Of a stretch of DNA of 64,000 nt, positions 1 through 16,665 are shown piece by piece (positions within the stretch are counted from its first letter, which is position 1; the number at the start of each line of letters is the position of its first letter). The translations under genes and the position numbers were made by a program. The stretch spans positions 576,001-640,000 of the forward strand of contig CAVOUE010000003.1 in assembly GCA_963699545.1 (NCBI GenBank), in the 5' to 3' direction. Origin of the DNA: Nitrospirota bacterium (lineage in GTDB: Bacteria; Nitrospirota; Thermodesulfovibrionia; Thermodesulfovibrionales; UBA9159). The notes beneath the pieces were generated by a model, which did no database searches, had not been told where the DNA came from, and saw only the letters and a program-made list of their open reading frames with translations.

Positions 1-784
1 TATCATCATTCATAAGATCGAAAGCTATGTGTCCGTCCGCAATGGCCTTGTAAATATTGTCGGCCGTTGCCAAACCCGAGGCATCTGCAACCGGTTCTCC
101 TTCTGTGTCAACCTCAGATTCGTCACGGTCTCTGTATTGCAGGAGGTCCGCGATGGTGAGCACCGCCTTTTCGGCAAGAACGCTTTTAAGAAGATCTACT
201 TTCCTCTCCTCAACGGGCGGGCAGGACGGGTCCATGTAGGCGGAAAGGAATTCAAGGTTCTGCACATATTGGCGTGGATGCTCATCCGCAGAACGGATCC
301 TGTAGGTTATGCCCATTTTGGCAAAATGCTCCTCTACGATAGGGAAACGCCAGCCGTCATCTTCCTTAATAAATCTGTCTGGATACTTCTTGGCAAGTTT
401 TTCGAGCCGCTTTTCCTCCCGCCATTCCTCGATGAGTATCTGGTCCTCCCGGATGATGAGGAAATCCGGCCAATGTTGTACGCGCGAGGGTTGGGTTTTC
501 CCCTCAGCCGTGGAAACCAGGTCCAGTTCACAGGGCTGGGCGTAGTATTCAAGGACAAAGGAGTCATGCTCGCACTGGACGGCAGTCGGGAACTCGACTT
601 TGCGGCTTTCGGTGCCTATAGGCCTGCCCATTTTCCTGCTGAAGTACCAGGTAATCACGTTACCGGAATGCGACTGGATATCCCTTACCGGCGCTTCCTT
701 CCTCGCCTTCTCCACTAAACGGCGGCCCGCCGTTGGAGTACCCAGTCGGTCAAACAAGGCATTTAATTCAATAGGACTCAGCAT
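1..784 (-). CDS. tnsA: Tn7-like transposase, TnsA endonuclease domain; probably N-terminus of a TnsA-TnsB fusion (runs off window, not in ORF track)
   Basis: Hand translation from ATG 784 (RBS AGGAGG 796-791): MLSPIELNALFDRLGTP...APVRDIQSHSGNVITWYFSRKMGRPIGTESRKVEFP...EHDSFVLEYYAQP...HWPDFLIIREDQILIEEWREE. TnsA_N motifs present; no stop in 261 codons. Confidence 0.88.
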   Translation of the reverse strand, partial: MLSPIELNALFDRLGTPTAGRRLVEKARKEAPVRDIQSHSGNVITWYFSRKMGRPIGTESRKVEFPTAVQCEHDSFVLEYYAQPCELDLVSTAEGKTQPSRVQHWPDFLIIREDQILIEEWREEKRLEKLAKKYPDRFIKEDDGWRFPIVEEHFAKMGITYRIRSADEHPRQYVQNLEFLSAYMDPSCPPVEERKVDLLKSVLAEKAVLTIADLLQYRDRDESEVDTEGEPVADASGLATADNIYKAIADGHIAFDLMNDD

Positions 785-892
785 CGTTGACCTCCTTTTA
801 AGGTTAGGCAACATGGCATCCAGTTAGATAAATCTAACTGAGCAAGTAAATAAAAAGCATTATTTGGCAGTATGTTCTTTCATGTTAGAAAT

Positions 893-922
893 ATCTTACA
901 ACATTTTGGCCTTGACAGTCAA
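893..922 (-). promoter_or_regulatory. sigma70 promoter for the transposase
   Basis: Minus strand TTGACT (922-917), 18 bp spacer, TAAGAT (898-893). Confidence 0.6.
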
Positions 923-941
923 GTAAAATGTTAGGTATAAT
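912..941 (+). promoter_or_regulatory. Consensus sigma70 promoter for the repressor (probably leaderless transcript)
   Basis: TTGACA 912-917, 18 bp spacer, TATAAT 936-941; ATG at 948 with no RBS. Confidence 0.8.
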
Positions 942-947
942 TTACAT

Positions 948-1568
948 ATGACGATCGGCGGCTATATGAAGGAAAAAAGAACATGGCTCAGACTGTCCCT
1001 GCGCGAGGCAGCGAAAGCGACAGGCATATCCCATGTTCACATTAAAGACATAGAAAACGATAAGATAAAGCCAAGTTTTGAAAAAATTATGCAGCTTCTT
1101 AAGGCCTATAATGCCGATATTCAGGGGTTCCTGAGTGAACTGGGCTTTCTGCCGCAAAACGTCGAGTCGGCCTCCATGGGGGAATCAAAGCCTGTGCCGC
1201 TTATTTCGTGGGTGGCCGCCGGACGGTTCGCGGACACCGATGCATTTCAGCAAGGTGAGGTTGCAGAATGGGTCGCCTCCGATGTGAAGGGACAAGATGT
1301 CTTTGCTTTGAGAGTAAGAGGCGATTCCATGGAGCCCGAGTTTACTGACGGCGATATTATCATACTGGACCCTCACGTAAAGCCTCATTCTGGGGATTAT
1401 GTGATAATAAGGAACGATGAAGGGGAAGCAACGCTTAAACAGCTTAAACAATATGGTAATATCCAGGTGTTGCATCCTCTGAACCCGAAGTACCCGGACA
1501 TAGAGTTATCGGGTGATCATCAGTATGTGATTGTTGGGAAGGTTGTGGAGAAGAAAAAGGGATATTAA
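948..1568 (+). CDS. Xre-HTH / peptidase S24 (CI/LexA-like) autocleaving repressor
   Basis: N-terminal HTH (LSLREAAKATGISHVHIKDIEND); cleavage site VAAG; catalytic Ser in GDSM and Lys in TLKQ. Confidence 0.93.
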   Translation: MTIGGYMKEKRTWLRLSLREAAKATGISHVHIKDIENDKIKPSFEKIMQLLKAYNADIQGFLSELGFLPQNVESASMGESKPVPLISWVAAGRFADTDAFQQGEVAEWVASDVKGQDVFALRVRGDSMEPEFTDGDIIILDPHVKPHSGDYVIIRNDEGEATLKQLKQYGNIQVLHPLNPKYPDIELSGDHQYVIVGKVVEKKKGY

Positions 1569-1688
1569 TTGTAACAGTGCTATTGATGAGTGAATGGGCA
1601 CTTCGCTTTTCTTTTGGGTAATGTCCATAGCATATCACCATAGACAGACAAGTTCGAAGAAGGGGCCACTTCCGTTAAAATAAACTCG

Positions 1689-2822
1689 ATGAATTTACCG
1701 CCAGAAAAGATATTCATTGCCAATTGCCATGTTAACAAGCTAGCCAAATTATCCAGAGATAATTTTCTTAAACGCGTAATCCACATAAAGGCTATCAGAG
1801 CTCAACCACTTAAAGCTTTCACTCTGCTTCCCAAGACTGAACAGGATTGGGTCGCGCTTGAACGTTTCTATGCTATTGTGAATAAGGGCGATTTTGGTCC
1901 AGACGCAAACCTTCCCTATGAAAGTCCTGCAAACACGATATTTGGAATCCATGTACCTTCCAATTTGTATCAGTGGTTTTCGAGGAACGACATTTCGACG
2001 ATCCTACGCCAAATAACGTTGTACTCAGCCACAGCATACCATCTTTACCATGGAGAGACCATACCCGAAATTGAGTCCCCCCTGATCAAAGAAGCGGTAC
2101 AGCAGGTGATGAATCGTTTCTATGCAAACAAGGATCTGTGGAATGTTCCCTTGGTCGAAGAAGCTTATCGCAATGCAGCACTTAATTACTGTAATTCGGC
2201 GATGCCGCTTTTCTTGTCGTCGGTTGCGGCCGATTTAAGCGAAGACGTCTACATCGATACGGCTTATTTCAGCAAGCACGACTGGAACTTTCACGTTCTT
2301 CGAAAAGTCACGAGGTCATATAAATGGCAGTATCTCGATGAGAGGCATGGCCCTAAGCCAAAACCAGAGGTTGATCAGAATTTGGTCGACGTCCCCCCGG
2401 AGCATTCTGAGAAGGTTTCCGAAAACGACTTAAGGGTGTCTGAAGCAAATGAAATTGCGTGGAGCATGTGGCTTATGACATTCCAACGCTATCCTGTCTC
2501 TAAGGCGCATATTTACAGCCTGTTCAGTAAGGAATCGGCAGCAGGCTACATCTATATTTTTCGCGCTGGAATGAGCTGCAGCTATAAGCTTGGGTGGACA
2601 GCAGATAGTGATATTGGCAAACGGCAATCTTCCCTTCAGACGGCCTCACGTGACCCTCTTATCATTGTCGATTTCTTTCCGGTATCTAACAGGAGGGCGG
2701 AAAAATCACTTCATGATATCTTTGCCAACAAAAGAACGTTAGGTGAATGGTTCGATCTAAGCGATGAGGATATATATCATCTGCGATCCGCTGACTGGAG
2801 ACGAGGGAATAACATATTTTGA
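1689..2822 (+). CDS. Protein with C-terminal T5orf172/Mug113-type GIY-YIG nuclease domain
   Basis: GYIYIF...YKLGWT...KRQSSLQTAS...EKSLHDIFANKRTLGEWFDL; N-terminal region not recognised. Confidence 0.8.
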   Translation: MNLPPEKIFIANCHVNKLAKLSRDNFLKRVIHIKAIRAQPLKAFTLLPKTEQDWVALERFYAIVNKGDFGPDANLPYESPANTIFGIHVPSNLYQWFSRNDISTILRQITLYSATAYHLYHGETIPEIESPLIKEAVQQVMNRFYANKDLWNVPLVEEAYRNAALNYCNSAMPLFLSSVAADLSEDVYIDTAYFSKHDWNFHVLRKVTRSYKWQYLDERHGPKPKPEVDQNLVDVPPEHSEKVSENDLRVSEANEIAWSMWLMTFQRYPVSKAHIYSLFSKESAAGYIYIFRAGMSCSYKLGWTADSDIGKRQSSLQTASRDPLIIVDFFPVSNRRAEKSLHDIFANKRTLGEWFDLSDEDIYHLRSADWRRGNNIF

Positions 2823-2857
2823 AGATGGCCTGTAAGGCTTCATTTCTCTGAGCGCCC

Positions 2858-5368
2858 CTATGTTTTTGCATATCGTGCGCGCTTTGTAAACTCGCAGTAA
2901 GGGAAATTTGAACATGCCAGGAAAGTTCCATACGGCCCATCCTTTTTTATCAGCTTTCCTCCTTTACAAAAGGGGCAGTCACCTCTTATCCCTTCTTTGT
3001 CCTGGATCTCTGTAATGAACTTGGATTTTTTTGACTCTTCGGTAAGTATAAAGACCTTGCGCTTTCCCCTAGTTAATGCCACATAGAATAGTCGTCTCTC
3101 CTCCGAGTTCTCATACAGATCAGGAGCTGTGAGCACTAGATTCAGTATGGGGTCATCCTCCATCTCGCTGGGGAATCCGTGCCTATCCTGAATTACGTTG
3201 TTTATTATCACATAATCAGCCTCCCTCCCTTTCGATTGATGGACGGATGTGAAATCGATGGTGATCTTGTTAAAACGCTGCACAAACTTGTCCAAAGTTT
3301 TTGGGGCCTTGAATTTGTATCTGTCTAAAATAAGAACGGATAACTTGCTCTTTTCCTTTCGTGCTTGTGTATTGATTCGTGACAAAACGTCGGCCAGTGG
3401 TTTATCATCGTCCTGCTCGCGCTTGTAAATGATCTCCAGTGAGGGCTCGCTCGCTATCAGATCTGTTTGTAGTTTCTTCGCCATTTGAAAAGGATTCTTC
3501 TGTATGAATTCACCTGAGATTTCGGAGATTTCCCTATTAAAACGAAACGTCTTCTCAATATAAGTTTTCTCGGTGTGGCCGAAATAATTCTCGAACGATG
3601 TCATGATATCCAAATCGCAGCCTGTGAATCTATAAATAGACTGCCAGTCATCTCCCACGCAAAATGTCTTAGTGCTGGGGGACTGATCAAGCAAGCTTTT
3701 GATCAGCGAGTACCTACCTTTGGAGATATCCTGGAATTCATCAATGAGGATGTAGTGAAAAGGAAACTCGTACCTGCCGCTTTTAATATAGGCCGTCGCC
3801 ATAGAAAGCATGTCGCTGAAATCAATACTGGACTCACTTTTCAAGTGCCCCTCATATTCCTCATAAATTGGTTCGAACACTTTCAGGAAGGCAATTGATC
3901 TTCCGGTTCTGTCTATCGTCGTAGCTTTCTCAATCACTTCCTGCATTGTGTATAGGTTCCCCTTAAAGAGGTTGAGGAATTTACAGATTAGGTGAATTAG
4001 TAGTGGGATATCTCTTGACTCCGTAAAATGCTTCAGGATTTCGTCGTCGTGTATTCTGTGGAGCATCATCCCTCTCTCCTGAAGCCTGAGGGCTAAATTC
4101 TTCAACAAAACACCTTCTCTTTTTTCATATGAGTATGTCTCTATGAGAGGAGTATTGTGCTCCATATGCATCCCTCGCGCCCACCCAATCTTTCCCTTAT
4201 AGAATTGGGATGCATTCATAGTACCTGTCTTCTGAAACCAGGGAGGAACGTTCCCATGTCTATCAATACCCCAATGTTCCAGGTAGATCTTGTGCTGTGG
4301 CAGGTAGAAATCCGGTCTATATTGCCTGTGATCCCGGTCCCTTGCCGGGAATTCGTACGGTCTCTCGTATTCGTAGTCGATGCCATTAAGAAAAAGGAAA
4401 TTCGCTATCTCAACTTCCTCGTAGCTTTTGAGTTTTTCGTTTTTCAGCGTAAAAATATTGTTTGACTTTATATACTGAATGTATTCATCGTGTGTCGAGA
4501 AAGCTTCCTGCGCTTTGTACGGGCGAAGATAATCGACAAGGTAGTCGACTAAGAGGGCTGAGTACTCTTCCCTTTTGACGAGCTTCTGATAAATGCTATT
4601 GATGAAAGATAAAGTATCTTGTTGCTCCCCAAATTTTACATCGGGCTTATCCCCCTTAACCGTTGCAATGACATCTCGACCAAAGCTGTGAAAAGTATGA
4701 ACCACAAATTGCGTGTCCGCGGGGGCGATGCCGGCAAGCCTCTCTTTTAGCCGATCGGCCATTTCTCTCATCACCTTTCTATTAAATGCAAGGATAAGGA
4801 TTTTATCTGGAGATATACCGTGTCTTGCAATAAGGTGGGCAACTTTCCCCACCATAGTTGTTGTTTTGCCCGTTCCCGCGCCCGCAATTACTAGACTGTT
4901 ATCCTCATCTTTGACTATAGCCAACCTTTGCGCTATATGAAGGGGATATCTTTCAACTGTATCAAAGAGCTGTGCGCATTCCTTCATCTCGCGGTCTGCA
5001 AACCACCCGTTGTATCTTTTGATGGTAGCGGTGCCATTGTCGCAGTACTTGAAATACCTAGAGAGCTTTGCCTTTACGTCGCTGCGGATTGGAAGTTTTT
5101 GAAAATCAAAGTCGATGACTGACTTGATATTCCCGTATTGCTGAAGCCAGTCCTCATACTTCTTCCAATTAAAGTATTCTTGACCCGAAAGATTCTTCTT
5201 GAACTCAAAAACGGCAGCCAACAGTTCGGGTTCGATAGAGGTGATGGCAGCCTTCCTTGCGCTCTCGATAGCGGCGATTACCGCCTTCCTCTTTCTTGTT
5301 ATCGTCTTACAGCGCCACCATATACCGAGAGCCGTAATTATAACGAGCGTTACTAAAAGATAGACCAT
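2858..5368 (-). CDS. UvrD/helicase IV-like SF1 helicase with N-terminal TM helix, inserted PD-(D/E)xK-like domain and C-terminal C4 zinc ribbon
   Basis: Walker A AGAGTGKTT, LIDEFQD, GDDWQSIY, EERRLFYVALTR; insert YEYE...RPDFYLP...LEHWG; CPFC...CSNFPYC. Confidence 0.9.
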   Translation of the reverse strand: MVYLLVTLVIITALGIWWRCKTITRKRKAVIAAIESARKAAITSIEPELLAAVFEFKKNLSGQEYFNWKKYEDWLQQYGNIKSVIDFDFQKLPIRSDVKAKLSRYFKYCDNGTATIKRYNGWFADREMKECAQLFDTVERYPLHIAQRLAIVKDEDNSLVIAGAGTGKTTTMVGKVAHLIARHGISPDKILILAFNRKVMREMADRLKERLAGIAPADTQFVVHTFHSFGRDVIATVKGDKPDVKFGEQQDTLSFINSIYQKLVKREEYSALLVDYLVDYLRPYKAQEAFSTHDEYIQYIKSNNIFTLKNEKLKSYEEVEIANFLFLNGIDYEYERPYEFPARDRDHRQYRPDFYLPQHKIYLEHWGIDRHGNVPPWFQKTGTMNASQFYKGKIGWARGMHMEHNTPLIETYSYEKREGVLLKNLALRLQERGMMLHRIHDDEILKHFTESRDIPLLIHLICKFLNLFKGNLYTMQEVIEKATTIDRTGRSIAFLKVFEPIYEEYEGHLKSESSIDFSDMLSMATAYIKSGRYEFPFHYILIDEFQDISKGRYSLIKSLLDQSPSTKTFCVGDDWQSIYRFTGCDLDIMTSFENYFGHTEKTYIEKTFRFNREISEISGEFIQKNPFQMAKKLQTDLIASEPSLEIIYKREQDDDKPLADVLSRINTQARKEKSKLSVLILDRYKFKAPKTLDKFVQRFNKITIDFTSVHQSKGREADYVIINNVIQDRHGFPSEMEDDPILNLVLTAPDLYENSEERRLFYVALTRGKRKVFILTEESKKSKFITEIQDKEGIRGDCPFCKGGKLIKKDGPYGTFLACSNFPYCEFTKRARYAKT

Positions 5369-5555
5369 TCCGCACCTTCTGAAAAGTATACCTCTTTTTT
5401 ATCTAAGAAATACTGATCTTTAGATGTGTGGAGTGTTTGTAATAGATGGCCATTCCACTTCCCCAGCTGTCTTAAGCGTAGTAGATAGGGGCACTATAAG
5501 TTAACCATTGGTGAGAAGAATAGTGCCCTTTTTGTTTTATGAAAGGAGAAAGAAA

Positions 5556-6215
5556 GTGTTTAAGCCACCATCTGCATTTAAGAAAGCCGGCGGTGAGAAC
5601 CGGTTGAATGCACTTTTGTCGTTAATGTCGCACAACAAGCGTCCCAATGGCGACTTTTGTACAATCAGTGTCCAAGAGAAGAAAACAAACACCTTAGGTT
5701 GGTGTGATAATGCCTTGAATGTCAGGCTACGGCTTGATTTATATGACGCGCAGCGCTGCTTTAAGTACTCCACTACTGTCTATAATGCTGTGTACTACTA
5801 CTATGGCGTCGCGACTTGTGGCAGGAGGAAAGATGTCGAGCTTCGCCTGGTATTGATTCAGGAGGACGGTAAAGTCCTTGACTCCGTGACGATTCATTCC
5901 TTAGAACGCCCTGCAGAGGAGGGGTACGGCGTTGAGGATCATAAGCATTATGAGTATCATGCCGAGGAGTTATATCGCGCCGAGGAGATTTGCTTTTCCC
6001 CTGAGAGCCCGATGTATTTCAGTTTATGGTTCGATATGAAATTATCGGGAGAGAATTCTGCCCATCAGGTCAAGGTGGATAGCGTTGGGGCATATCATGC
6101 TATCAAACAGGAGTATCGGAGGCATAAGGGTGGATGGGACAGGTTTACCATGATCATAGTAGATCACCTTCTGAACAATGACACACTGATAGACAAAATC
6201 AACGTGCGGTACTGA
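5556..6215 (+). CDS. Hypothetical protein
   Basis: Long ORF; AGGAG precedes GTG at 5556 (track start 5508); no family recognised. Confidence 0.55.
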   Translation: MFKPPSAFKKAGGENRLNALLSLMSHNKRPNGDFCTISVQEKKTNTLGWCDNALNVRLRLDLYDAQRCFKYSTTVYNAVYYYYGVATCGRRKDVELRLVLIQEDGKVLDSVTIHSLERPAEEGYGVEDHKHYEYHAEELYRAEEICFSPESPMYFSLWFDMKLSGENSAHQVKVDSVGAYHAIKQEYRRHKGGWDRFTMIIVDHLLNNDTLIDKINVRY

Positions 6216-6307
6216 GAAGTGGTTTCCCCGGCCTTTGATCGAGCCCCTTCAATCTTTATCCTTTCGGAATAAGTATCCCTGAGGAAGACACTTAGGTTTA
6301 TTTCCTC

Positions 6308-6336
6308 TTGACTTTTGTATGTAATTGTTTTTTAAT
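6308..6336 (+). promoter_or_regulatory. sigma70 promoter
   Basis: TTGACT 6308-6313, 17 bp spacer, TTTAAT 6331-6336. Confidence 0.6.
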
Positions 6337-6342
6337 TGTCTC

Positions 6343-6495
6343 AAGGGCTATGCGAAGGTCCGGACCGCCCGCAGGCGTTGAGAGCCACGGTGAAGCACAC
6401 AGCGATTCGCAACGATGTTTGTAGTTTCTCTGATCGACAGGGCACTTCCCTAAATATAGGGCTGCTCGATCGTCAATGCGGGCATTCGAGTATCA
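6343..6495 (+). ncRNA. Candidate structured RNA leader
   Basis: Nested pairings: GCCCGCA 6367-6373 with TGCGGGC 6477-6483; CGAA 6353-6356 with TTCG 6485-6488; GATCGA 6432-6437 with TCGATC 6466-6471; CCCTA/TAGGG 6448-6461. Confidence 0.55.
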
Positions 6496-6526
6496 GGGCA
6501 GCAACTATATTGAAGGAGGCATAGTG

Positions 6527-7862
6527 ATGTCGACAGAACAAGAGAATTTCCCCATTGATATTGCAAAAAGAAAAGCAAAGCATCTCCATTCCATCCTGAA
6601 AGTTCGTATCCCTGATATCTCTCTCGGCGAATGTCTTAACAGTTATGCAAGAATGGAAGGGGCGCGGGATTGGAATACGCTCAGTGCATCCTTCAAAGCA
6701 CAATCTCCCTATGAAGAAAGCCCTTATAAGAAGATAGGGACTTTTGTGGACGAGGTCTTGCGGCCTATGATGACGCAAATCGCCGGTGCACACGGGATGG
6801 AGTTTAGCGCCCCGGCGGCCTATTTTGTGGCACAGAAGGACGGGAGACGAAAACGTTGCAGACTCTCGACCGTCAAAGGAGCTCGAAGTGACCTTTTGGC
6901 CAAAAGGTCTGAGAAATAGCGATTTCAGTTTCAGCATCGAAGTGAGTCCTGCGGCTATTACTCAGGAAAGGGCAGAGATTACCTTTATGTTTCCGGAGCA
7001 GGCTTGCGGAGATGCAACGAGGATTCTCTCCAGTGAGAGGATGCCCTACGTTCTCACGCCAAGCCTTATGCGAACAACGGAAAAAGGGAGAACTATGTAT
7101 CGTCTTATCCTGGAGCTGGAGCCGTTCTTCTATTTCGCCGGCGAGGCTGGGGAAATGTGGCAAGCTGCTGAAAAGATTGAGCATGTCCGGCAGGAAGTTG
7201 AGGAAACCGTTGCCAAGTATGCAAAGCTCAACGCTGTTTTTCAGAGGCTGTCCAGAAAATGGGGCGATAAAAAACTCCTGTCCAGCTTTGAAACGACGTT
7301 ATGGGAGGTCTTCACCGGAAAGCCCCGCTTTATGTCCGCGTCGACCGAATTCCATCGTGCGTCTTTCGGAGATGTGACTCTTACAGCCCATGTGGGAGAC
7401 TCCGGGCCTTACCTCAAAGGTCCTGAAGGGAATCTCAAGCTCGGTGTGAGTTCAATAATCTACCTCGAAGGAGGCGATAAAAAGCCTGCCGGGTATTACG
7501 TCGCGAAGTATGGCAACGATTATGAGGCTGACATTTACCTGAAAGGCATCGCGAAGGAAGGTATTGCAGACATTACAGCCGAATTTGGAGTTCCCATGGA
7601 CTACAAACTAGCAGTGCAATTAGGGATACCCCTGGAAGAGGTCAAAGAGGAGTACGTCGCTTTTTACAGATCGCGTGCATTCCTTGGGCTGCAGGACTGG
7701 GTTTCCAGAAACCGGAGCTTTGCAAAGAGAATAAGCAGACAGGCTCCATATCTCCCTGATTGGTACGAAAGGGCTACCGGTCAGCGTCCGATTCCGGATT
7801 CGGATGAAGACTTGGACCAGGAAGGTGGAGCGATAAGGAACCGCCGCAGGTCAAGGAAATAG
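6527..7862 (+). CDS. Protein with N-terminal 'glyoxalase superfamily' (Glyoxalase_8-like) helical domain and unknown C-terminus; split by one frameshift near 6830-6850
   Basis: RBS AGGAGG 6514-6519; AKRKAKHLHSILK...ISLGECLNSYARMEGARDWNTLSA; overlapping ORFs 6476-6919 and 6786-7862. Confidence 0.6.
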
Positions 7863-7869
7863 GGCTGCA

Positions 7870-7901
7870 CGGGGAAAGGGGTTATTATTCCCCTTTCCCC
7901 G
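7870..7901. terminator. Perfect 12-bp hairpin (terminator-like or processing stem)
   Basis: CGGGGAAAGGGG-TTATTATT-CCCCTTTCCCCG; no U-tract. Confidence 0.55.
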
Positions 7902-7942
7902 GAAATGCGAGATCGCATAACACTCTACAGGAGGATTTTGTC

Positions 7943-8572
7943 ATGGCAGCTTCCCAGGAGGAGAGAGTAGAAAGGGCAATGAAGAAGCTCGGTATCGAGG
8001 ATGATACTCCACTCGATGATATCTGCGATGTTGTCACGCGCATGTTCGCTTATGGTGGGGTCGCCTATATGTCGTCTGACTGGCGAGAGCATACACATCT
8101 TACCCGAAGACAAGCCGGACGTCTCTTTGAAGGTTACTTTAGAGGGTTCCAAGGTTTCAAGAACTTCGGGACTGGTCCAGGCGGGATTGAGAGATATGGA
8201 TGCAGTCGCTTTAAGGTTCACTATTACCATCCGGAACTAAGGGCTGCGTTCGACCTTGTATCCAAAACAGGGGTAGCGCCTTCGCGGCTGGCTGGTGCAA
8301 GAGCAAAAGTCCGTTTCTTCAAGGATCTGAAAATTACCTATATCCCCTTGCCCTATTCAAAGCTTTATGAAATGGTCGTGGAGCGGGTAAGAAAGATCAT
8401 CAAGAACAAGGAACTCAACAGCAATAAGGCGGTTCTGTCTTACTTCATTGGAGACGCCCCCATTGAGCCTATGGAAGAAATGGGCCAAATATTTGGAACG
8501 ATATTTGGAGATCTCTTTGACAATATTTTCGAAACGAAACCGACAGTGAGAAAAGAGGAGGCCACTATCTGA
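7943..8572 (+). CDS. Hypothetical protein
   Basis: 209-aa ORF with GGAGG RBS. Confidence 0.7.
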   Translation: MAASQEERVERAMKKLGIEDDTPLDDICDVVTRMFAYGGVAYMSSDWREHTHLTRRQAGRLFEGYFRGFQGFKNFGTGPGGIERYGCSRFKVHYYHPELRAAFDLVSKTGVAPSRLAGARAKVRFFKDLKITYIPLPYSKLYEMVVERVRKIIKNKELNSNKAVLSYFIGDAPIEPMEEMGQIFGTIFGDLFDNIFETKPTVRKEEATI

Positions 8573-8726
8573 CAAGAAGGATATCGCCAGTAGGGTCAAA
8601 GAGCGCAGTGCCACTGTGGACATTGCTTTCACTCCCAGACGCGGGGTAGGCTGGAGTGCCTTTGATTCCGGCGTTTTGGCCCGCGTTTGCTAGGTCTCGT
8701 TAACAAAAGAATAATTAAGAAAAGTT

Positions 8727-9146
8727 ATGAGTATACGGGCTCGCATTGAGGATGCTTTGTTCCTATATCAAAACGGCAGATATGAAGGCGCATTTCTAAA
8801 TGCACTCATTGCCGTTGCTGCAACTGCTCGTGTCGAATCTCCTGGCCGCGCTACAAGCGATCGTGAATGTTTTGAGAAGTTCTTAGACAAGCGGCAGCGA
8901 GGCATAATCAAGGTCGAATATAGAGGCGAGCTACATACGGTTCCTCATATTTTATATAAATGGTTTAGATGCGAACTGGTACATGAAGGCAAGCTGCCCA
9001 TTGACGTTCAATTTATAGCAACAGATGATTTGTCTGTCAGGGCTGGCGGTGCTCCAGAATATATTCTAAAGATCTCTCATGGCTGGTTTCATTGGCTCAT
9101 CAACTCTGTTATAGAGGCCCCCTGCAATGCAAATGAATTCAAATGA
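8727..9146 (+). CDS. Small HEPN-like protein
   Basis: Helical N-terminus (A..LY..GRYEGA...ALIAV) and RxxxxH motif RCELVH. Confidence 0.65.
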   Translation: MSIRARIEDALFLYQNGRYEGAFLNALIAVAATARVESPGRATSDRECFEKFLDKRQRGIIKVEYRGELHTVPHILYKWFRCELVHEGKLPIDVQFIATDDLSVRAGGAPEYILKISHGWFHWLINSVIEAPCNANEFK

Positions 9147-9240
9147 TGAGTCTGTTGCTTGCATTACGCGACGTGGGAGCGTGCGAAACAGCCTTTTCAA
9201 GAATTATGTGATCTGATATTATCTTGCCATCGGACTAATT

Positions 9241-10284
9241 ATGGAAACACATGACTGGAAGAGTTTTGAAAGGCTTGTGGCGGCAATTAACGCCACTAAA
9301 ATGAGAGGGGCCGACGTCAGGTGGAATGATAAGATTAATGGTCGTCAATTCGATGTCAGCATCCGATTTAAATTTGGAGATTACGAATATTTGACCGTCA
9401 TAGAGTGCAAGAACTACGGGTCCAAGGTGGCGGTGGAAAAAGTTGAAGCCTTCATCACAAAAAGTGGGGACGTAAAGGCTAATAAGGCGGTAATGGTATC
9501 GTCCTTGGGATTTCAGGAAGGTGCAATTACAGTTGCCAAACAGCACGGGATTGATCTGATTACTTTAAATGAAAAAGTCGAGTATCCCGAAGAAAAGCTA
9601 ACCTCGATTGTGATTCCAGCTGTAAACATTTATGGCGTATCTTTATTAAGAAAAGGCAAAAGACAACCGATAGAGTTTGAGGGCGGCTCTAAATTACGTT
9701 ATTCGCTTTCTCATACGTTTGTGATTCAAGAATCGAAGAAAGCCGCTTTGGATAGCATCTTGTCGGATTGGGTCAATAAGAATTACGAAAAATTGTCATA
9801 CGCTGAAAGCATGCATGAAATAGCTTTCCCTGAAGGTTCCATTGTTGAAGTTTCCGAGAATGGTATTCAAAACCGTATTAGAGCAATTGCATTTAAGGCC
9901 CGCTTTATAGATACGACCCCCTCAAAGGGCCCGATGTTAGATCCACATCTGCATGAAAGAATGAATACTTATGTAGTAATGGATAATATACTCAACGGAA
10001 CCACAGAAAAAATTAAGCTGACAGACATTGAGCACGGTTTTGATACCAAAGTAAAAGAGGGATACTTCTACGTGTCGCCTCAATCAGGGCAGACTTATTT
10101 CTGTGAGAAGATCGAAGGTGACTTAGTTACTTGGTGGCTCGTAGAATCGTACCAGCACGGCCAAAGAATAGACATACGATTTACACAAGAGCTTGAGTAC
10201 TCCAAGTATTATAAGGAGATATTGGATGAAAAGATAATTAAGAGGTTGAGGAAATCGATAAATGAACTCTTGAAAGGCAGCTGA
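9241..10284 (+). CDS. Mrr-like restriction endonuclease domain protein
   Basis: WKSFERLVA...RQFDV...IECKNY...VEKVEAF...AVMVSSLGFQEGA; no adjacent methyltransferase. Confidence 0.85.
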   Translation: METHDWKSFERLVAAINATKMRGADVRWNDKINGRQFDVSIRFKFGDYEYLTVIECKNYGSKVAVEKVEAFITKSGDVKANKAVMVSSLGFQEGAITVAKQHGIDLITLNEKVEYPEEKLTSIVIPAVNIYGVSLLRKGKRQPIEFEGGSKLRYSLSHTFVIQESKKAALDSILSDWVNKNYEKLSYAESMHEIAFPEGSIVEVSENGIQNRIRAIAFKARFIDTTPSKGPMLDPHLHERMNTYVVMDNILNGTTEKIKLTDIEHGFDTKVKEGYFYVSPQSGQTYFCEKIEGDLVTWWLVESYQHGQRIDIRFTQELEYSKYYKEILDEKIIKRLRKSINELLKGS

Positions 10285-10389
10285 CAAAATTAACCCTTTT
10301 CCGCTGCGAGCCACATTTTGGTAAAACACGATGCGCCAAACTTTAGTTCCACTTTTGCACGGCGCGACAAACTATCGGCAACGTCACAC

Positions 10390-11175
10390 TCAGACTGCCT
10401 TCTTGTATCTGCATCTTGGAAAATTACTGCATCCCAAGAACGGTTCCCCTGCAGACTTACCACTCTTGGCAACGCGCTGTACGAGCTGCCCGCCACAGCG
10501 AGGGCAAATCGTTGTTAACTCATGACGCTCGCGCAACGAATCGAGGTGTGTATCGCGGCTTATAGGATTATCCTGTTTCAATTTTCTCAGCGATGTCTCT
10601 ATCTCAGTAACTTGTTGCGGTGTAAGGCAAGGCTGTCTGAAGTCTTTGATGTATGGAACGAGGCCGCTGCTCATCACATTAGAAGGCATAGGCGTCTTGA
10701 ATGTGCAATCCCCTATAAAGAAGACAATCGGCTTAAAGATCTCATGATCCAGGCGAAGATACTCAGACAGACATTTTGTATGCCGGTAGTTCTGCTTAAT
10801 GGGGTTTTGAAACTGGCTCTTTTTACCAAAGATTGACTGTGTCCATTTATCGTTTTCCGGGGAGCCGAATATCCACCCTTTTATATTCTTCGTTTCTATG
10901 ACGAAGATCCCATATACCGAGACGATCACATGGTCAATCTGTGTTGTGCCATCTGAGGCGGGTACAATTACGTCGTCGATTCTGCGGTAGGTATCTCTAT
11001 CCAGCAGCGCCCACATCCCGGCAGAAGTGATTTTTTCGCCGATCCAGCCCTTGACGGTCTTACGTCTGCGCTTTAATAAGGCTATGACCACTAGAATGAA
11101 AATAATAGGGATCAAAAACACTAATCCTTGGGAAAGCCCTTTCAAAAGAGCAAGAATCATGTCAATTGATGTCAC
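10390..11175 (-). CDS. NERD nuclease with N-terminal TM helix and C-terminal topoisomerase-type C4 zinc ribbon
   Basis: KGWIGE...TQIDHVIVSVYGIFVIETKNIKGWIFG...NPIKQN; CPRCG...GCSNFPRC. Confidence 0.92.
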   Translation of the reverse strand: MTSIDMILALLKGLSQGLVFLIPIIFILVVIALLKRRRKTVKGWIGEKITSAGMWALLDRDTYRRIDDVIVPASDGTTQIDHVIVSVYGIFVIETKNIKGWIFGSPENDKWTQSIFGKKSQFQNPIKQNYRHTKCLSEYLRLDHEIFKPIVFFIGDCTFKTPMPSNVMSSGLVPYIKDFRQPCLTPQQVTEIETSLRKLKQDNPISRDTHLDSLRERHELTTICPRCGGQLVQRVAKSGKSAGEPFLGCSNFPRCRYKKAV

Positions 11176-11198
11176 GATGGAAGTCCCTTCTCATCAGC

Positions 11199-11894
11199 TC
11201 ATTGACTACTTGTAATCTTGATGTCTTGGAAAAACTTTTGAGCTTGTGGGAGAATGTAATCAACATATTCAGGCTTTACCCTGACATATCCTGAGACCTC
11301 TCCGTTGTCTTTATCTTCAAATTTCGGGTCCAGCTCGATGAAGCCCTGTGCAATGTGTTTTCTTAATGCCCCGTCTTTGGTGTTAAGCAGACCCCTATTG
11401 TGGACTATCGCATTTCTAAGAGTCCGAAGGCCAACTATTTCCGGCCACTGAGCATTCTTTCCGAGGTCCAAATCCACATCTAAGACTTTTTCCATATAGA
11501 GCTTCGCCTGGTCCAGATAACCTCCCTTGAGGTCACTGTACCGTAAATCAACCTTTTCACCCTTTTTCTGTCTATCATGGCGAAGTGTATCACACAGGAG
11601 GCCCATTCCTGCCTCTATGCTGGCATAGAGCATCACGACGAAGGAGTCCAGAGCAAGCTTTCCGAAGACGTAGTCTATTTTTTGGTAATCGTCCGAGAAA
11701 AACTCTAAGTATTCCTCTTGCTCCTTTGCGTCTAAGCCTTTCGCTCCTTCTTCTAAACGCTCTGCAGTTAGCTTCTGCTCTCGATCAATGGCAAACTTCA
11801 TGAATGCATTATAATCCAGCAAGTTATCGAAGCCACTTATGATAAATTTGTGCATCATAGGGGCTAAACTCATAACATCTCCCTTGCTTGGCAT
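11199..11894 (-). CDS. HEPN-like protein
   Basis: VVMLYASIE...WPEIVGLRTLRNAIVHNRG (RxxxxH). Confidence 0.7.
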   Translation of the reverse strand: MPSKGDVMSLAPMMHKFIISGFDNLLDYNAFMKFAIDREQKLTAERLEEGAKGLDAKEQEEYLEFFSDDYQKIDYVFGKLALDSFVVMLYASIEAGMGLLCDTLRHDRQKKGEKVDLRYSDLKGGYLDQAKLYMEKVLDVDLDLGKNAQWPEIVGLRTLRNAIVHNRGLLNTKDGALRKHIAQGFIELDPKFEDKDNGEVSGYVRVKPEYVDYILPQAQKFFQDIKITSSQ

Positions 11895-12143
11895 ATCACA
11901 CTATTGACGTTCCCCGCCGTCGTTATTTTGTTTTTTGCCATGCCGATATTATGCCAGCTTTAGAATTTGCAGGCAATAGAAATGCAATACTTGATCACAA
12001 GAAGTCGTGGACTCCTGGGGCAGAGTGAGCACGGCGCTATTTAGTGATACGGACTTGACCATTATTCTAAGAGAATTATTCCAGTAGAATAATTCCCGAT
12101 GGCGGATGGGAACGGTTAGGTTGCATTAGAAGTAATGTAGGGA

Positions 12144-13142
12144 CTATTTTTTCTTCATAAAATCAGGAATCATCTTCCCTATTTTTAAGAGCATTACAAT
12201 ACCTGTCATAGTGAAAAAGAAAATAATAAACCAGCTCAAAGAGAAGATAACATTGAAAAGATATTGTTTGGAATCCAACAGGGAAAGAGATAAGTTGGTT
12301 TTGAAAAGATACTCTGAATTTAAATTAATACTATCGGAACCATAGACGAGAATACCCACCATGCAGAGAAGAACTAATAGAGAGACATAGGAAATGTTTA
12401 ATATAAATCCCTGTATAAAATATTTTCGTATAGCATTGTCATGCTGGTTTTCTGAGGTAATGATGCCGAGGAAGATACCAAGTAGTCCGACGTAAGATAC
12501 ATATACGGCAGAAATGGTTGTTAAGGCTGTCTTCAGTGTATCTGGAGCAATGACTCCAAAGAAATGAAAAGGGTAAACGCTTAGAACCAGAACAGCAGAA
12601 CATGCCACTAATACAAAATGGAACCAATTAGGAATGTCAAAAAATTCGTCATAAGGTCTTATTAGAATCCACTTAACAAAAAATATAGCAAATCCGAGCA
12701 TCCATATTGGCTGTTTCAGCTTATAAGCGAGATAAAGAAGAACTATCAATCTAAAGGGCTTAATGATAAAATCGTTGATATTATGACCGTCAGGAGAGGT
12801 GACATAGGCATTCCCAGTCTTTATCAGAAAACGGATTCTCAGGACATTCATAATTAGGTACGTGACAGCTAATATGAGGACACCGACATCTTTATCGGTA
12901 CAGTAAATTATGATAAAGGAAAGAAAATAGAACGCATTTTGGGATAGTGTCTGACTGCTAATTCTCAATTTGCTATGCTTCTCATGACGATGTGCTTTTG
13001 AAAAAGGTTCTTCTGTTAAAGATGCCTTTTTTCTCGTAAAGACTCGAAATATTAACCGTGGCACATCCGCAAGCATAAATAGAATCCAGGCCATTCTTAT
13101 CCAAGTGACAGGTGTCATATCATTCACCAAACCTGCAATCAT
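12144..13142 (-). CDS. Multi-pass membrane hypothetical protein
   Basis: Many hydrophobic segments; very AT-rich; 13120-13347 may be a frameshifted N-terminus. Confidence 0.7.
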   Translation of the reverse strand: MIAGLVNDMTPVTWIRMAWILFMLADVPRLIFRVFTRKKASLTEEPFSKAHRHEKHSKLRISSQTLSQNAFYFLSFIIIYCTDKDVGVLILAVTYLIMNVLRIRFLIKTGNAYVTSPDGHNINDFIIKPFRLIVLLYLAYKLKQPIWMLGFAIFFVKWILIRPYDEFFDIPNWFHFVLVACSAVLVLSVYPFHFFGVIAPDTLKTALTTISAVYVSYVGLLGIFLGIITSENQHDNAIRKYFIQGFILNISYVSLLVLLCMVGILVYGSDSINLNSEYLFKTNLSLSLLDSKQYLFNVIFSLSWFIIFFFTMTGIVMLLKIGKMIPDFMKKK

Positions 13143-13399
13143 ATCTGATTATAGTTGATATACTTGGCAATTTTCTCGCCGTTATTAATTTGCTTTGCTT
13201 CGGCATCCGTATAACCTTTGTCTCTAAAGCGTTCCTTTCCGGAAGAAACCCTACATTTATAGCAGAAACGCCATAGTGTACAACACGTTCAGCCAAGACA
13301 AGCAGCCGTGATTTCGAGGACATTAGATTGTCACGAAAGAAAATCACCGGGAGGATATTTTAGGGTATGCCAGCACCCTTCCTCCTAGTCTACACGGTG

Positions 13400-13542
13400 C
13401 GACAGGATATGCTTCTGATTCTGCACGGCACGACACATTATGCTTCTATGGGTAGTTAAATTCTGGCAATTAGACCGGTGATTTGAATAGTAAAACGACA
13501 GGTTATGATTCCGAAGGGCGACACATTATGCCTCACGGCACA
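13400..13542 (-). repeat. Tn7-like transposon end: four TnsB-type binding repeats plus 8-bp terminus
   Basis: CGACAGGATATGCTTC 13400-13415; CGACACATTATGCTTC 13431-13446; CGACAGGTTATGATTC 13496-13511; CGACACATTATGCCTC 13519-13534; then ACGGCACA (reads TGTGCCGT from outside). Confidence 0.85.
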
Positions 13543-13737
13543 GTTCAGTTCGTTCGTTGGCTTCCCGAAATCCTCAACGGACGTCAACAGGTTTCGTTTT
13601 GGCAGGGAGAAGTATTTCTGAATGCAGGTGATGTTCAGGCTGGAAGCCGGGAGACGGTATAGACCAACGCTCATTCCTGAGCCTTTGGCATAACAGGGAG
13701 ATCCAAACGTCAGGGCAAGACTACAACCTAAACTAAT

Positions 13738-13947
13738 TCAAAAGCCGTAACTGTATTGCCATTTCCTTCTTAAACATTTCGCCAAAAAGAGGGCACAGTT
13801 ATCATAGTTTTCGTTGTTGCAGCGCTTCAATCTTACTAATGCCCCTATCTTGAGAGATGTCACGGATGCTTTGCATACATCTGTCTTGACATCACAGTAC
13901 GGACATGCATCCAAGTCTTCTCTGGCCCTTGTTGCTAGTGCATTCAT
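13738..13947 (-). CDS. Small Cys-rich protein (69 aa)
   Basis: RBS AGGAGGTG before ATG 13947; CPYC...C...C...NCALFLAKCLR. Confidence 0.7.
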   Translation of the reverse strand: MNALATRAREDLDACPYCDVKTDVCKASVTSLKIGALVRLKRCNNENYDNCALFLAKCLRRKWQYSYGF

Positions 13948-13967
13948 GGTATCCACCTCCTTTCTTC

Positions 13968-14147
13968 TTAGCAATTGAATGAAAACCTCCTTGCGGCACT
14001 ATTCGCTATGATGCTTGGCAAGTTCAGTTCAGGTCTTACCCATACCTCCCTGTCTTCGATTTGTTCTTCGTAATCACAAAGAATGTTAGAACACTCATAA
14101 TGAGTTTCCCTGTCCAACATCTCTCTGCCGCACGCCAGGCATTTCAT
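13968..14147 (-). CDS. Small zinc-ribbon protein (59 aa; not in ORF track)
   Basis: RBS AGGAGGT 14160-14154; MKCLACGREMLDRETHYECSNILCDYEE... Confidence 0.7.
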   Translation of the reverse strand: MKCLACGREMLDRETHYECSNILCDYEEQIEDREVWVRPELNLPSIIANSAARRFSFNC

Positions 14148-14179
14148 GACACTACCTCCTTATCCGGATTACTGCTGAC

Positions 14180-14235
14180 AGTTTAGTAAAAGGATGTTAC
14201 AGGGTGATGACTGTACCGTGAAGTTTTCATGTCAA
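14180..14235 (-). promoter_or_regulatory. Pho-box-like (PhoB/OmpR family) tandem repeats with -10 element
   Basis: Minus-strand heptamers at 11-bp period: TTGACAT, ACTTCAC, CAGTCAT, CTGTAAC; then 10 bp and TAAACT. Confidence 0.6.
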
Positions 14236-14394
14236 ACCCCTCGTGAACTATCGAAATTATCGATATATGAGATAACCATAAATAACAACCTGACAAATGA
14301 TGTTATCCTGCCAAAATGAATAGAAAAACAAAATCCTGTGGACATCATCAAGGTGTATAGTCTCATTTCAATATTTCCTTTCGATGTCGATAGA

Positions 14395-14653: not shown

Positions 14654-15337
14654 CTAAAGAGGTGACTGGTCCGGCTCCTTCTCCGAGAACAGTTTCGTTC
14701 TTTTTATCGCTCCCATCAGATAGTCCTTGAATTTATCAGGAAAGAGCCACTGTATCCCCAGTTTCTCAGCCCAGAGGATCAAGCCCTGATCGGCGGAAAT
14801 CAACAGAGCATCCAGTTCCGCGGCGAGGAGGAGCAGGTCCACATCCTCTTTGCTGTCGATGATCCCCTCCCTCAGCGCCTCCCGGTACTTTCTTCTCAGG
14901 TCCTGGATTATCTCATCCGGTTTTTTCTTTTCAGCACCCCTCACTGCCTTCTCCGCGATCCGCAACCCCTTGTTCACCCTCTCCCGCATGTCTTCTATCA
15001 GTTCATAAAGCAGGAACGCGGGAATCTTAAGTTCATGCCGCTTAGGCGGTTTCTGATGCAGGATAAGGAGGAGGTCCCCGGGGATCCTTTCCTTTTCCAC
15101 AAAATGGAGCAGTTCCTCAAATATGGACGGCGGCATATAAAATTCCAGGATATGGATCTGCGCTGCCAGAAACAGGAAGGTCTCAAGGGCTTCTGTGGGC
15201 GTGCTCCCGAGGCTTGTCCGGACATCAGGATTGACAAAAAGACTTGTGTCCAGGACAACCCTATGGGGCGGCGGGAGAAAAGTGAGAGGAGGCGATGCAC
15301 CACCGTGGTCCTCGAGTTCGTTACGCTCATCGCCCAT
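14654..15337 (-). CDS. HARP protein-only RNase P (Aq_880-like PIN protein)
   Basis: VLDTSLF...YMPPSIFEEL...IPAFLLYELIEDMRERVNKGLRIAE...LRRKYREALREGIIDSKEDVDL...SADQG. Confidence 0.92.
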   Translation of the reverse strand: MGDERNELEDHGGASPPLTFLPPPHRVVLDTSLFVNPDVRTSLGSTPTEALETFLFLAAQIHILEFYMPPSIFEELLHFVEKERIPGDLLLILHQKPPKRHELKIPAFLLYELIEDMRERVNKGLRIAEKAVRGAEKKKPDEIIQDLRRKYREALREGIIDSKEDVDLLLLAAELDALLISADQGLILWAEKLGIQWLFPDKFKDYLMGAIKRTKLFSEKEPDQSPL

Positions 15338-15351
15338 CCCGATCTGTCCTT

Positions 15352-16665
15352 TCAGGCCTTGCAGACTCCGTAGAGATTGAACTGATACGTATCCCACTCC
15401 CTGCAGTTGGGGCATCTCCCCGACCAGTCATCTGAGGAATACCCACAGCTGTAGCAACAATACGGAAGCCTGAACGGTTTCTTCATGTCGATCACCTTCT
15501 TAAATTCTTCAACAGCCTTCTCGCATTGCTGCCGTCTCAGATAGATGTTCCCCAGGAGCTGGTGCAGCTCAGGATAGGGAGTGCTGCTCGTGTCAACCCT
15601 CACAAGGGTGTCGTATGCGTCGTCCAGCATCTCAAGCCGGTAAAAGAGTTTCCCCATAAAGAAGCGCAGGGCCTGGTTCTGGGGTTCCTTCAGCGTGCTG
15701 TTCCGGTAGAGGGTGATCAGTCTCCCGGGTTCGCCGAGATTAATAAGGAGATCCTCTATCCTCGCCAGGATTATGTTGGACGATGTCTGTTCGAACCCCC
15801 TCTGGAGAAGAGCGATCGCATCTTCGGATTCTCCTTCCCTGAGCATTGCCTCGGCAAGGCCGAGGTAGGCAGGTACAAAGTCCTTGTCCAGGCGGAGCAC
15901 TGTGGTAAAGGCTTTCTTTGCCTTTTCCGGTGCGGCGTTTTCGATGCCGTATCTGCCCTGTTCGTATTTATATCCTATGAGGTTCTTCTGCTCCCTCTGA
16001 CGGTCCTTCTCATTGTGTTCGCATTTGATTATGGTCCTCTGGATGGCGATGGTGTCGTCCCACCGTTCGCTTTTCTCAAGCAGTGACCGCTTCCGGTAAA
16101 GGGCAGTGAGGTTATCAGGGTCCAGCCTGAGGATTTCGTCCAGGTACAGGGTCGCTTCCGACCCTCTGCCGGTCTTCCCCATCATCCTTTCCAGGGAAAA
16201 GAGCACCTCGATATTCCGGGGCTGTATATCCCTTGCCCTCTTATAGTAGCCCAGGGCCTTCTGATAGTCCTCGTCCCCAGCAGCGATATCGCCAAGTCTC
16301 AGAAGGGCGTCCATGTGTCCGGGTTCTTCCTGGAGGATGCTCTCGAGGGCGGACCGGGCCTCATCTTCGTCGTCGGCGAGGATAGCGTTCAGCGCCCTTG
16401 AGTAAAGCTCCTGGATATGCATGTCCCGTTTCTGCCGGCGCTGATGCTGCCTGCTGTCAATGAACCGCTTGGTATCCCTGAAGAAAAAATAGACGAGCAT
16501 TACTGCAGCGCCCACCGCGAAGGACAGGAGGATGAGGGCTATCTTTGGCATCTCATACGCCGTCTTCGGAGCGACGGTAAGGGTGATGGTCTCCTCGTTC
16601 ATGACGGCAAAATAGCCGAGGGCCAAAAGCAACAACACAAAAAGCAAGAGGGCAAATTTACCCAT
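15352..16665 (-). CDS. lapB: LPS assembly LapB-like TPR protein with LapA-like N-terminal membrane region
   Basis: Two N-terminal TM segments, TPR repeats, C-terminal CYSC...WSGRCPNC rubredoxin motif. Confidence 0.8.
   Translation of the reverse strand: MGKFALLLFVLLLLALGYFAVMNEETITLTVAPKTAYEMPKIALILLSFAVGAAVMLVYFFFRDTKRFIDSRQHQRRQKRDMHIQELYSRALNAILADDEDEARSALESILQEEPGHMDALLRLGDIAAGDEDYQKALGYYKRARDIQPRNIEVLFSLERMMGKTGRGSEATLYLDEILRLDPDNLTALYRKRSLLEKSERWDDTIAIQRTIIKCEHNEKDRQREQKNLIGYKYEQGRYGIENAAPEKAKKAFTTVLRLDKDFVPAYLGLAEAMLREGESEDAIALLQRGFEQTSSNIILARIEDLLINLGEPGRLITLYRNSTLKEPQNQALRFFMGKLFYRLEMLDDAYDTLVRVDTSSTPYPELHQLLGNIYLRRQQCEKAVEEFKKVIDMKKPFRLPYCCYSCGYSSDDWSGRCPNCREWDTYQFNLYGVCKA

Follow-up and report, generated by a model that had tools for sequence, protein, structure and literature searches.

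The 64-kb stretch of Nitrospirota DNA analysed here (the window; G000:C3:576001-640000) begins inside a mobile element. Window positions 1-13542, together with 6,118 bp to the left, very probably make up a 19,660-bp Tn7-like transposon. It belongs to the clade with fused TnsAB and tRNA homing that gave rise to the type I-B2 and I-D CRISPR-associated transposons (CASTs), and it appears to rely on non-CRISPR, protein-guided homing. The element is well-formed and apparently intact. It encodes a TnsA-TnsB fusion, a TnsC and a large TnsD, and it lies beside a tRNA-Leu(CAG) gene between two copies of a 5-bp target-site duplication. Positions outside the window are given on L002, the 20 kb of DNA that ends at window position 1000 (window position = L002 position - 19000), and the features are collected in Table 1. 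Statements on published systems refer to the sections of the cited papers on which we draw.

A single open reading frame encodes a TnsA-TnsB fusion

An initial annotation, drawn from the window alone, had described a minus-strand frame with a strong ribosome-binding site and TnsA motifs at the left edge of the window, and this description holds. The frame (window 2..784) is open for 261 codons from an ATG at 784 to the window edge, and the sequence AAGGAGG stands 5-6 nt ahead of this ATG as its Shine-Dalgarno sequence. When the window part of the frame was searched against Pfam, TnsA_N (PF08722) matched residues 77-164 with an E value of 2.3e-6 and a score of 28.5 bits, above the cutoff of 26.5; a match to TnsA_C in the same search was weak (E 0.17). 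A second in-frame ATG is present upstream at 814. The start at 784 was preferred because of the spacing of the AAGGAGG sequence and because homologues begin at equivalent ML.. residues.

Beyond the window edge the frame continues without interruption. There is no stop at 270-280 amino acids (aa) and no separate tnsB gene; the frame reaches 912 aa and encodes one polypeptide that combines TnsA_N (residues 77-164), an rve/DDE domain (519-625) and a Mu-transposase C domain (736-783). The fusion that the initial annotation had proposed is therefore present. Residues 13-854 of the 912-aa protein align to the 898-aa TnsAB chain M of Protein Data Bank (PDB) entry 9bw1 with an E value of 4e-133. The chain lengths and names of 9bw1 fit the TnsABCD transpososome of the type I-B CAST from the Peltigera membranacea cyanobiont 210A, PmcCAST (PMC12585508). 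PmcTnsAB is a natural fusion, in which residues 73-172 form the nuclease, 509-634 the DDE domain and 855-898 a C-terminal hook (PMC11915506). A protein identical to the 912-aa TnsAB is present in the protein collection, where close relatives carry the NCBI name "DDE-type integrase/transposase/recombinase."

The TnsAB sequence was aligned with homologues that share 25-76% identity with it (19 homologues). The nuclease-half residues E59, D107 and E120 and the DDE-half residues D527, D596 and E632 are invariant in all 19 aligned sequences. By position, D107 corresponds to D106 of McCAST. Mutation of D106 turns McCAST into a cointegrate-former, and the TnsA-domain aspartate is needed for cut-and-paste transposition (PMC9881144).

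The left end of the element lies beside a tRNA-Leu gene

The left terminus, TGTGTCGCGGAACCATAACTTGTCGCA, has its first base at L002 12883, 28 nt past the 3' end of the tRNA-Leu(CAG) gene. The right terminus, ...CACGGCACA, closes with CACA, and its last base is at window 13542. The termini are thus of the TGT/ACA type, and each is flanked by a copy of the same 5-bp sequence. A regular-expression scan of 20 kb for the repeat core CGACA-N4-TATG-N-TTC returned seven copies at the two ends and one elsewhere. On the tRNA side, a single terminal site has the expected orientation, and two further sites, 28 bp apart, point the opposite way; the far (right) end contains four sites in a single orientation. 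A second end was also sought beside tnsAB, at window 785-947, where none was found; the repeat pattern of the left end led to window 13398 instead. The GC content of the element is 47.2%, compared with 52-53% in its flanks. The tRNA gene and the left flank are conserved in six same-family loci, and the right flank gave no blastn alignment at those six loci.

The target selector is of the TnsD type

The initial annotation had placed tnsC and a target selector directly to the left of the window, and genes for a TnsC and a TniQ-family TnsD were found there. Together with ORFs of 266 and 129 aa, they lie downstream of tnsAB on the same strand. The TnsC matches the TnsC of PDB entries 9bw1 and 8fcu (E 8.6e-40), and it has a Walker A (GPTGAGKT) and a Walker B (IIDE) motif. 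The TniQ-family protein matches the 462-aa TnsD of entries 8v32 and 9bw1 over residues 20-426 (E 2.6e-39), whereas the match to the 329-aa Pmc TniQ of 8fcu covers N-terminal residues 20-205 only. Because the match to Pmc TnsD is nearly full-length and that to the small TniQ is confined to the N terminus, the selector is classed by homology as a TnsD-type TniQ, predicted to bind DNA, and not as the Cascade-coupling type. The 266-aa and 129-aa ORFs, situated between tnsD and the left end, have no significant match in Pfam or NCBIfam and no homologue in any of the fetched loci. The 129-aa product contains hydrophobic stretches.

No Cascade genes (Cas6/Cas8 or Cas10d/Cas7/Cas5) were found when Pfam was run on 13 cargo ORFs, PADLOC on 10 of these 13, and Pfam and NCBIfam on five left-side proteins. 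The sole Cas-named match was a weak one to Cas1a (E 1e-3), on a protein with an Mrr domain. No CRISPR array was detected in the 20 kb, where the short-range direct repeats consist of the end repeats and one 24-nt pair only, and an Rfam scan returned tRNA only and no CRISPR repeat family. A second small TniQ was not found either; among all element ORFs scanned there is one TniQ-domain protein. Because Cas genes, a CRISPR array and a second TniQ are all missing, the gene content indicates that targeting is protein-guided homing to tRNA-Leu(CAG) via the TnsD-type selector. The initial annotation had left the pathway undefined, and what was found is a TnsD-type selector beside tRNA-Leu(CAG) without Cas genes. 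The lineage that it had named, which includes type I-B2 and I-D CASTs and tRNA-targeting elements, agrees with the fused-TnsAB clade (PMC9881144).

Comparison with known systems

In the tRNA-targeting branch that contains PmcCAST (I-B2) and McCAST (I-D), TnsA and TnsB form one polypeptide (Hsieh & Peters, PMC9881144). Most members of this fused-TnsAB branch are found at tRNA attachment sites, which are recognised by a large TnsD-like TniQ, and left-end binding sites in both orientations are unique to the branch among Tn7-like elements (PMC9881144). In more than 99% of McCAST insertions the left end is next to the target (PMC9881144), and CyCAST homes to a position 30-33 nt past a tRNA-Leu gene with TnsAB, TnsC and TnsD alone (Faure et al., PMC10293859). 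The element described here has the features of this clade: a fused TnsAB, an adjacent TnsC, a large TnsD-type TniQ (>450 aa), a tRNA-proximal left end, a 5-bp target-site duplication and the left-end layout. Of the features of a CAST, it lacks the Cascade genes, the CRISPR array or guide repeat, and the second small TniQ.

TnsAB, TnsC and TnsD all match their PmcCAST counterparts over nearly the full length. PmcCAST likewise has a TnsAB fusion of ~900 aa, a TnsC with an AAA+ core and a TnsD of ~460 aa, and it homes downstream of a tRNA (PMC11915506, PMC12585508). In contrast, the present element is without the Cascade genes, CRISPR array and second TniQ of PmcCAST. Its host belongs to the Nitrospirota, whereas that of PmcCAST is a cyanobacterium, and its tRNA gene is tRNA-Leu(CAG), whereas the PmcCAST target plasmid carries tRNA-Val (PMC10293859). 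Betaproteobacterial and acidobacterial TnsAB proteins score 551-1075 bits against the TnsAB studied here, above the Pmc chain at 449 bits. With the TnsD pathway of McCAST and CyCAST the element shares TnsABC+TnsD insertion downstream of tRNA-Leu, with the left end proximal and with left-end sites in two orientations (PMC9881144, PMC10293859). It differs from these systems in having no I-D Cascade, in an arginine at the position of the motif lysine, and in TGT/ACA termini, compared with TAC/GTA in McCAST.

Tn7 of E. coli consists of the TnsA nuclease, the DDE transposase TnsB, the adaptor TnsC and the TniQ-family protein TnsD, with the attachment site attTn7 at glmS. It inserts in one orientation downstream of this conserved gene with a 5-bp duplication, and its TGT/ACA ends carry multiple TnsB sites. 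The TnsABC+D core, the 5-bp duplication, the TGT/ACA ends and the insertion downstream of a gene are shared by the element described here. However, it has TnsA and TnsB fused, targets a tRNA gene, is oriented with its left end and not its right end toward the target, and lacks TnsE. The tns operon also reads toward the target-proximal end, unlike that of Tn7.

By homology to PmcCAST, McCAST and CyCAST, a mechanism of insertion can be outlined. TnsD would bind the tRNA-Leu(CAG) gene in its 3' part and recruit a TnsC ring, and the ring would in turn recruit TnsAB via its C-terminal tail. TnsAB, bound to the end repeats, would then insert the element, with its left end leading, ~25-30 bp beyond the tRNA and generate a 5-bp duplication.

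Related elements

A search with TnsAB returned 160 homologous proteins at E <= 1e-10, with ~900-aa forms numerous among them; named sources are Nitrospirota, Acidobacteriota and Betaproteobacteria. Within the host phylum, a match was found in 10 of 401 sampled genomes, and the fused form of ~900 aa or more is present in six, this genome counted. The fused-TnsAB clade is therefore present but sparse in Nitrospirota.

A tRNA gene could be identified in 15 of 79 metagenomic loci that contain a relative of TnsAB. In each of these 15 loci the tRNA gene follows the tns operon in convergent orientation, at 2.5-6 kb beyond tnsAB. Represented are tRNAs of the Met, Ser, Arg, Leu, Pro and Gln types, with one of unassigned type. 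The other 64 loci show no tRNA in the available DNA, and many of them are short. In a distant betaproteobacteria-like branch (L058-L083 and others, TnsAB 35-38% identical), a co-directional ORF of ~150-175 aa either overlaps the start of tnsAB or directly adjoins it.

The relative at locus L004, from a metagenome-assembled genome of Nitrospirota, has a TnsAB that is 75% identical. Its element has nearly the same terminal sequence and the same layout of one site plus two inverted sites, and a tRNA-Asn(GTT) gene (L004 21073-21148) is found 31 nt away from it. No right end was found within the 10 kb of upstream DNA at this locus, and its tnsD (L004 13793-15134) appears split into two reading frames. 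The tRNA-Asn of L004 and the tRNA-Leu studied here share the T-arm core GGGTTCGA(G/A)TCCC; the tRNA choice in this subclade may therefore be loose, or set by a few residues.

Alternative interpretations

On the opposite strand of the TnsA region runs a plus-strand frame, window 2..718, that the initial annotation had treated as a shadow ORF. It is long, with 238 aa in the window and 332 aa when the neighbouring DNA is included (L002 18720-19718), and it could in principle be the true gene, with the TnsA-like frame arising by chance. Practically no weight can be given to this interpretation, since homologues of the minus-strand frame extend over its full length (E = 0), a solved structure matches it too, and the plus-strand frame does not stay open in relatives: the equivalent stretch of L004 holds a 141-aa ORF only, and that of L005 several short ones. 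The element might also be a cryptic I-B2 or I-D CAST, with its Cas genes hidden in one of two stretches of cargo ORFs, window 5508-9146 or 11199-13142. Homology of the core proteins to PmcCAST speaks for this, as do six cargo ORFs without a family match. Nevertheless, this is highly improbable, because neither Pfam nor PADLOC gave a match to Cas5, Cas6, Cas7, Cas8 or Cas10d, none of the unmatched ORFs has the size of a Cas8 or Cas10d, and there is neither a direct-repeat array nor an Rfam CRISPR repeat. The second small TniQ that is present in every described I-B2 and I-D CAST (PMC9881144, PMC10293859) is missing as well.

Several observations weigh against a protein-guided, intact homing element. 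A clean empty site was sought in same-family genomes and none was convincing, and for this reason the boundaries are drawn from the inverted termini, from the repeats and from the 5-bp duplication. In the same-family locus L023 the tRNA gene and the left flank align well, and the right flank aligns only weakly, with a score of 42 (shuffled sequences: mean 29, standard deviation 5, maximum 49), and in five same-family genomes the right-flank genes lie away from tRNA-Leu(CAG). For the selector, binding of TnsD to the tRNA gene is a prediction from homology, and the TnsD of L004 is 63-74% identical yet its element is found beside tRNA-Asn. The PADLOC search covered neither the two left-end ORFs nor the XRE gene and the overlapping ORFs (147 aa on the plus strand, 154 aa on the minus strand) at window 6473-6937. 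In the nuclease half, the lysine column of the PD-(D/E)xK motif (D107 ... E120-x-K), whose catalytic role is deduced from the motif, is occupied by R122 here and by arginine in seven other sequences, and by lysine in 11 of 19. R122 may weaken the nuclease half, so that movement could be replicative instead of cut-and-paste. The genome, which is 87% complete, contains one copy of the element, which gives no sign of recent activity. The element could accordingly be a fixed relic, or move by replication only, with its TnsA nuclease crippled by the change from lysine to arginine; PmcCAST, in which the motif is apparently intact, has already been reported with cointegrates (PMC9881144). We consider this unlikely. 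The core ORFs are all intact, the two ends are complete, the target-site duplication is perfect, and the acidic residues of the nuclease are invariant. The arginine is common to eight sequences that have diverged to as little as 44% identity, and this suggests a residue that is tolerated or selected for and not decay. A homing transposon of the fused-TnsAB clade remains the preferred interpretation.

A repressor gene and two palindromes precede tnsAB

A gene for a 206-aa repressor of the CI/LexA type is divergent from tnsAB, with a spacer of 163 bp between them (window 785-947). The protein consists of an HTH_3 domain (residues 7-59) and a Peptidase_S24 domain (residues 84-200), the latter covering the full model. 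Its translation shows the motifs VAAG, GDSM and TLKQL. From the motifs of LexA, we take VAAG to be the Ala-Gly cleavage site, and the serine of GDSM and the lysine of TLKQL to be the Ser/Lys dyad. The spacer contains two palindromes, the candidate operators O1 and O2. A search of the 64-kb window for GTTAGA-N4-TCTAAC with at most one mismatch gave these two matches, both in the spacer, where 0.12 are expected by chance. On the repressor side, the perfect sigma-70 consensus ends 6 nt before the ATG, and this suggests that the repressor mRNA is leaderless or nearly so.

The same arrangement is seen at L004, where a 70%-identical repressor occupies the same position (repressor and spacer region, L004 9214-9970). 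In the 22.7 kb of this locus the palindrome has two matches only, both in the spacer between tnsAB and the repressor gene and 61 bp apart. The repressor is the sole non-Tns gene common to the two elements; the other 13 non-core ORFs, 11 of them cargo and two at the left end, are without a homologue in L004. Because no other non-core ORF is shared, the repressor travels with the core and not with the cargo. In the subclade with at least 67% identity, all six loci with upstream DNA have an HTH_3-type gene at the repressor position, as identified by Pfam or homology. The S24 domain is present in two of these genes. The other four, at L005, L018 (= L047), L037 and L041, encode HTH_3 proteins, 235-247 aa long, in which the C-terminal domain is a different one.

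For the wider clade, the upstream ORF was picked at 61 metagenomic loci and scanned together with the repressor of this element, 62 proteins in all. The nearest-upstream-ORF pick is crude and dropped 18 of the 79 loci, 17 with <900 bp of upstream DNA and one without an ORF of at least 60 aa nearby. An HTH_3 neighbour is not general in this set (4 of 62 proteins), and S24 was found in 1 of 62. DUF6788 matched 6 of the 62 proteins.

It is possible, although we regard it as doubtful, that this sub-lineage carries its own CI/LexA-type switch, in which an HTH+S24 repressor binds two 16-bp palindromes and RecA-stimulated self-cleavage turns on the transposase. The repressor would bind O1 and O2, with O2 covering the -10 element of the promoter-like site that faces tnsAB. 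DNA damage would then turn on the transposase through self-cleavage of the repressor, as in prophages and SXT-type integrative and conjugative elements (ICEs). Like repressors of the lambda CI, LexA and SXT SetR type, the protein combines an HTH with a full S24 domain and is divergent from its presumed target genes, with palindromes in between. The repressor described here lies in a Tn7-like transposon and not in a prophage or an ICE. A study of an I-F3 CAST reports that SOS has no effect on the genes of that element, and it cites the same for Tn7 (PMC12452197). In the literature searched, no title or abstract opening ties a Tn7-like element to an S24 repressor. The damage-inducible switch is a lead and not a finding.

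Cargo genes and flanking DNA

The 12.6 kb from tnsAB to the right end is cargo. Defence-rich cargo has been reported for Tn7-like elements, and the cargo of this element looks like the nuclease and helicase content of defence islands, judging from its domains. No complete known defence system was identified among the cargo genes. In the fetched loci, 10 of the 11 cargo ORFs have no homologue, and the UvrD helicase has two weak partial matches. The ORF run at window 5508-9146, between the helicase and nuclease genes, could be an undescribed defence module. In the relative at L018 (genome G024, TnsAB 68% identical), a gene for an OLD-type ATPase/TOPRIM protein, identified by Pfam, lies downstream of tnsD (L018 8077-11526); an adjoining 557-aa ORF has a P-loop motif, and the two may form a Gabija-like GajA/GajB pair.

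In the 1.1 kb to the right of the element the ORFs are all small and cysteine-rich (78 and 59 aa). Within this stretch, window 13568-13639 and 13722-14382 have counterparts of 74-82% identity in two same-family genomes, and one 72-nt piece matches a contig of genome G398 that also carries a TnsB-like gene. The host genes that follow, at window 14654-16677, encode a 253-aa PIN_5 ribonuclease and a 441-aa LapB-like protein with TPR and a Zn ribbon, an ordinary chromosomal flank.

Table 1. Features of the element and its insertion site. Positions are on the window unless marked L002.
Feature	Position	Strand	Basis or remark
tRNA-Leu(CAG)	L002 12768-12854	+	ARAGORN, Rfam
Left copy of target-site duplication, GTTCA	L002 12878-12882
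Left end	L002 12883-12956		Starts at 12883 with TGTG
ORF without family match, 129 aa	L002 13227-13616	-	ORF
ORF without family match, 266 aa	L002 13604-14404	-	ORF
tnsD, 467 aa	L002 14580-15983	-	TniQ domain 33-172; PDB match
tnsC, 364 aa	L002 15980-17074	-	Pfam AAA_22 and TniB; PDB match
tnsAB, 5' part, codons 1-261 of 912	1..784	-	ORF and Pfam; gene runs left to G000:C3:574046 (L002 17046)
Shine-Dalgarno sequence AAGGAGG of tnsAB	790..796	-	Read from sequence
Palindrome GTTAGATAAATCTAAC, candidate operator O1, tnsAB leader	823..838	.	Palindrome scan
Palindrome GTTAGAAATATCTTAC, candidate operator O2, 61 bp from O1	884..899	.	Palindrome scan; overlaps -10 of minus-strand promoter-like site
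Promoter-like site facing tnsAB, TTGACT-18-TAAGAT, 9/12 matches	893..922	-	Consensus scan only
Perfect sigma-70 consensus TTGACA-18-TATAAT	912..941	+	Consensus scan; 6 nt before repressor ATG
Repressor gene, 206 aa, HTH_3 and Peptidase_S24 (CI/LexA-type)	948..1568	+	Pfam S24 E 3.5e-28, HTH_3 E 1e-10
377-aa protein with C-terminal T5orf172/MUG113 domain	1689..2822	+	Pfam
836-aa UvrD-type helicase with C-terminal Zn ribbon	2858..5368	-	Pfam; PADLOC GajB-like and DRT-helicase models
Same-strand ORF run: 235, 358, 209 and 139 aa without family match; 147 aa with weak Glyoxalase_8	5508..9146	+	Pfam, PADLOC
347-aa protein with N-terminal Mrr_cat restriction-endonuclease domain	9241..10284	+	Pfam
261-aa protein with NERD nuclease-related domain and Zn ribbon	10390..11175	-	Pfam
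Two ORFs, 231 and 332 aa, without family match	11199..13142	-	Pfam, PADLOC
Right end, four same-orientation TnsAB-binding repeats	13390..13542		Repeats at 13400, 13431, 13496, 13519
Right copy of target-site duplication, GTTCA, 5 bp	13543..13547

Discussion

The element belongs to a known family and is unremarkable within it; fused-TnsAB, tRNA-homing elements have already been described and structurally solved. As a transposon it adds little, and its homologues are widespread. It does indicate that the published end architecture holds outside cyanobacteria, and that a fused-TnsAB element here mobilises nuclease and helicase genes in a block of 12.6 kb. The one unusual and possibly new feature is the S24 repressor-operator module. 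If the proposed switch is correct, a Tn7-family element would have its movement coupled to a stress signal, which would bear on the control of such elements and of CAST-derived tools.

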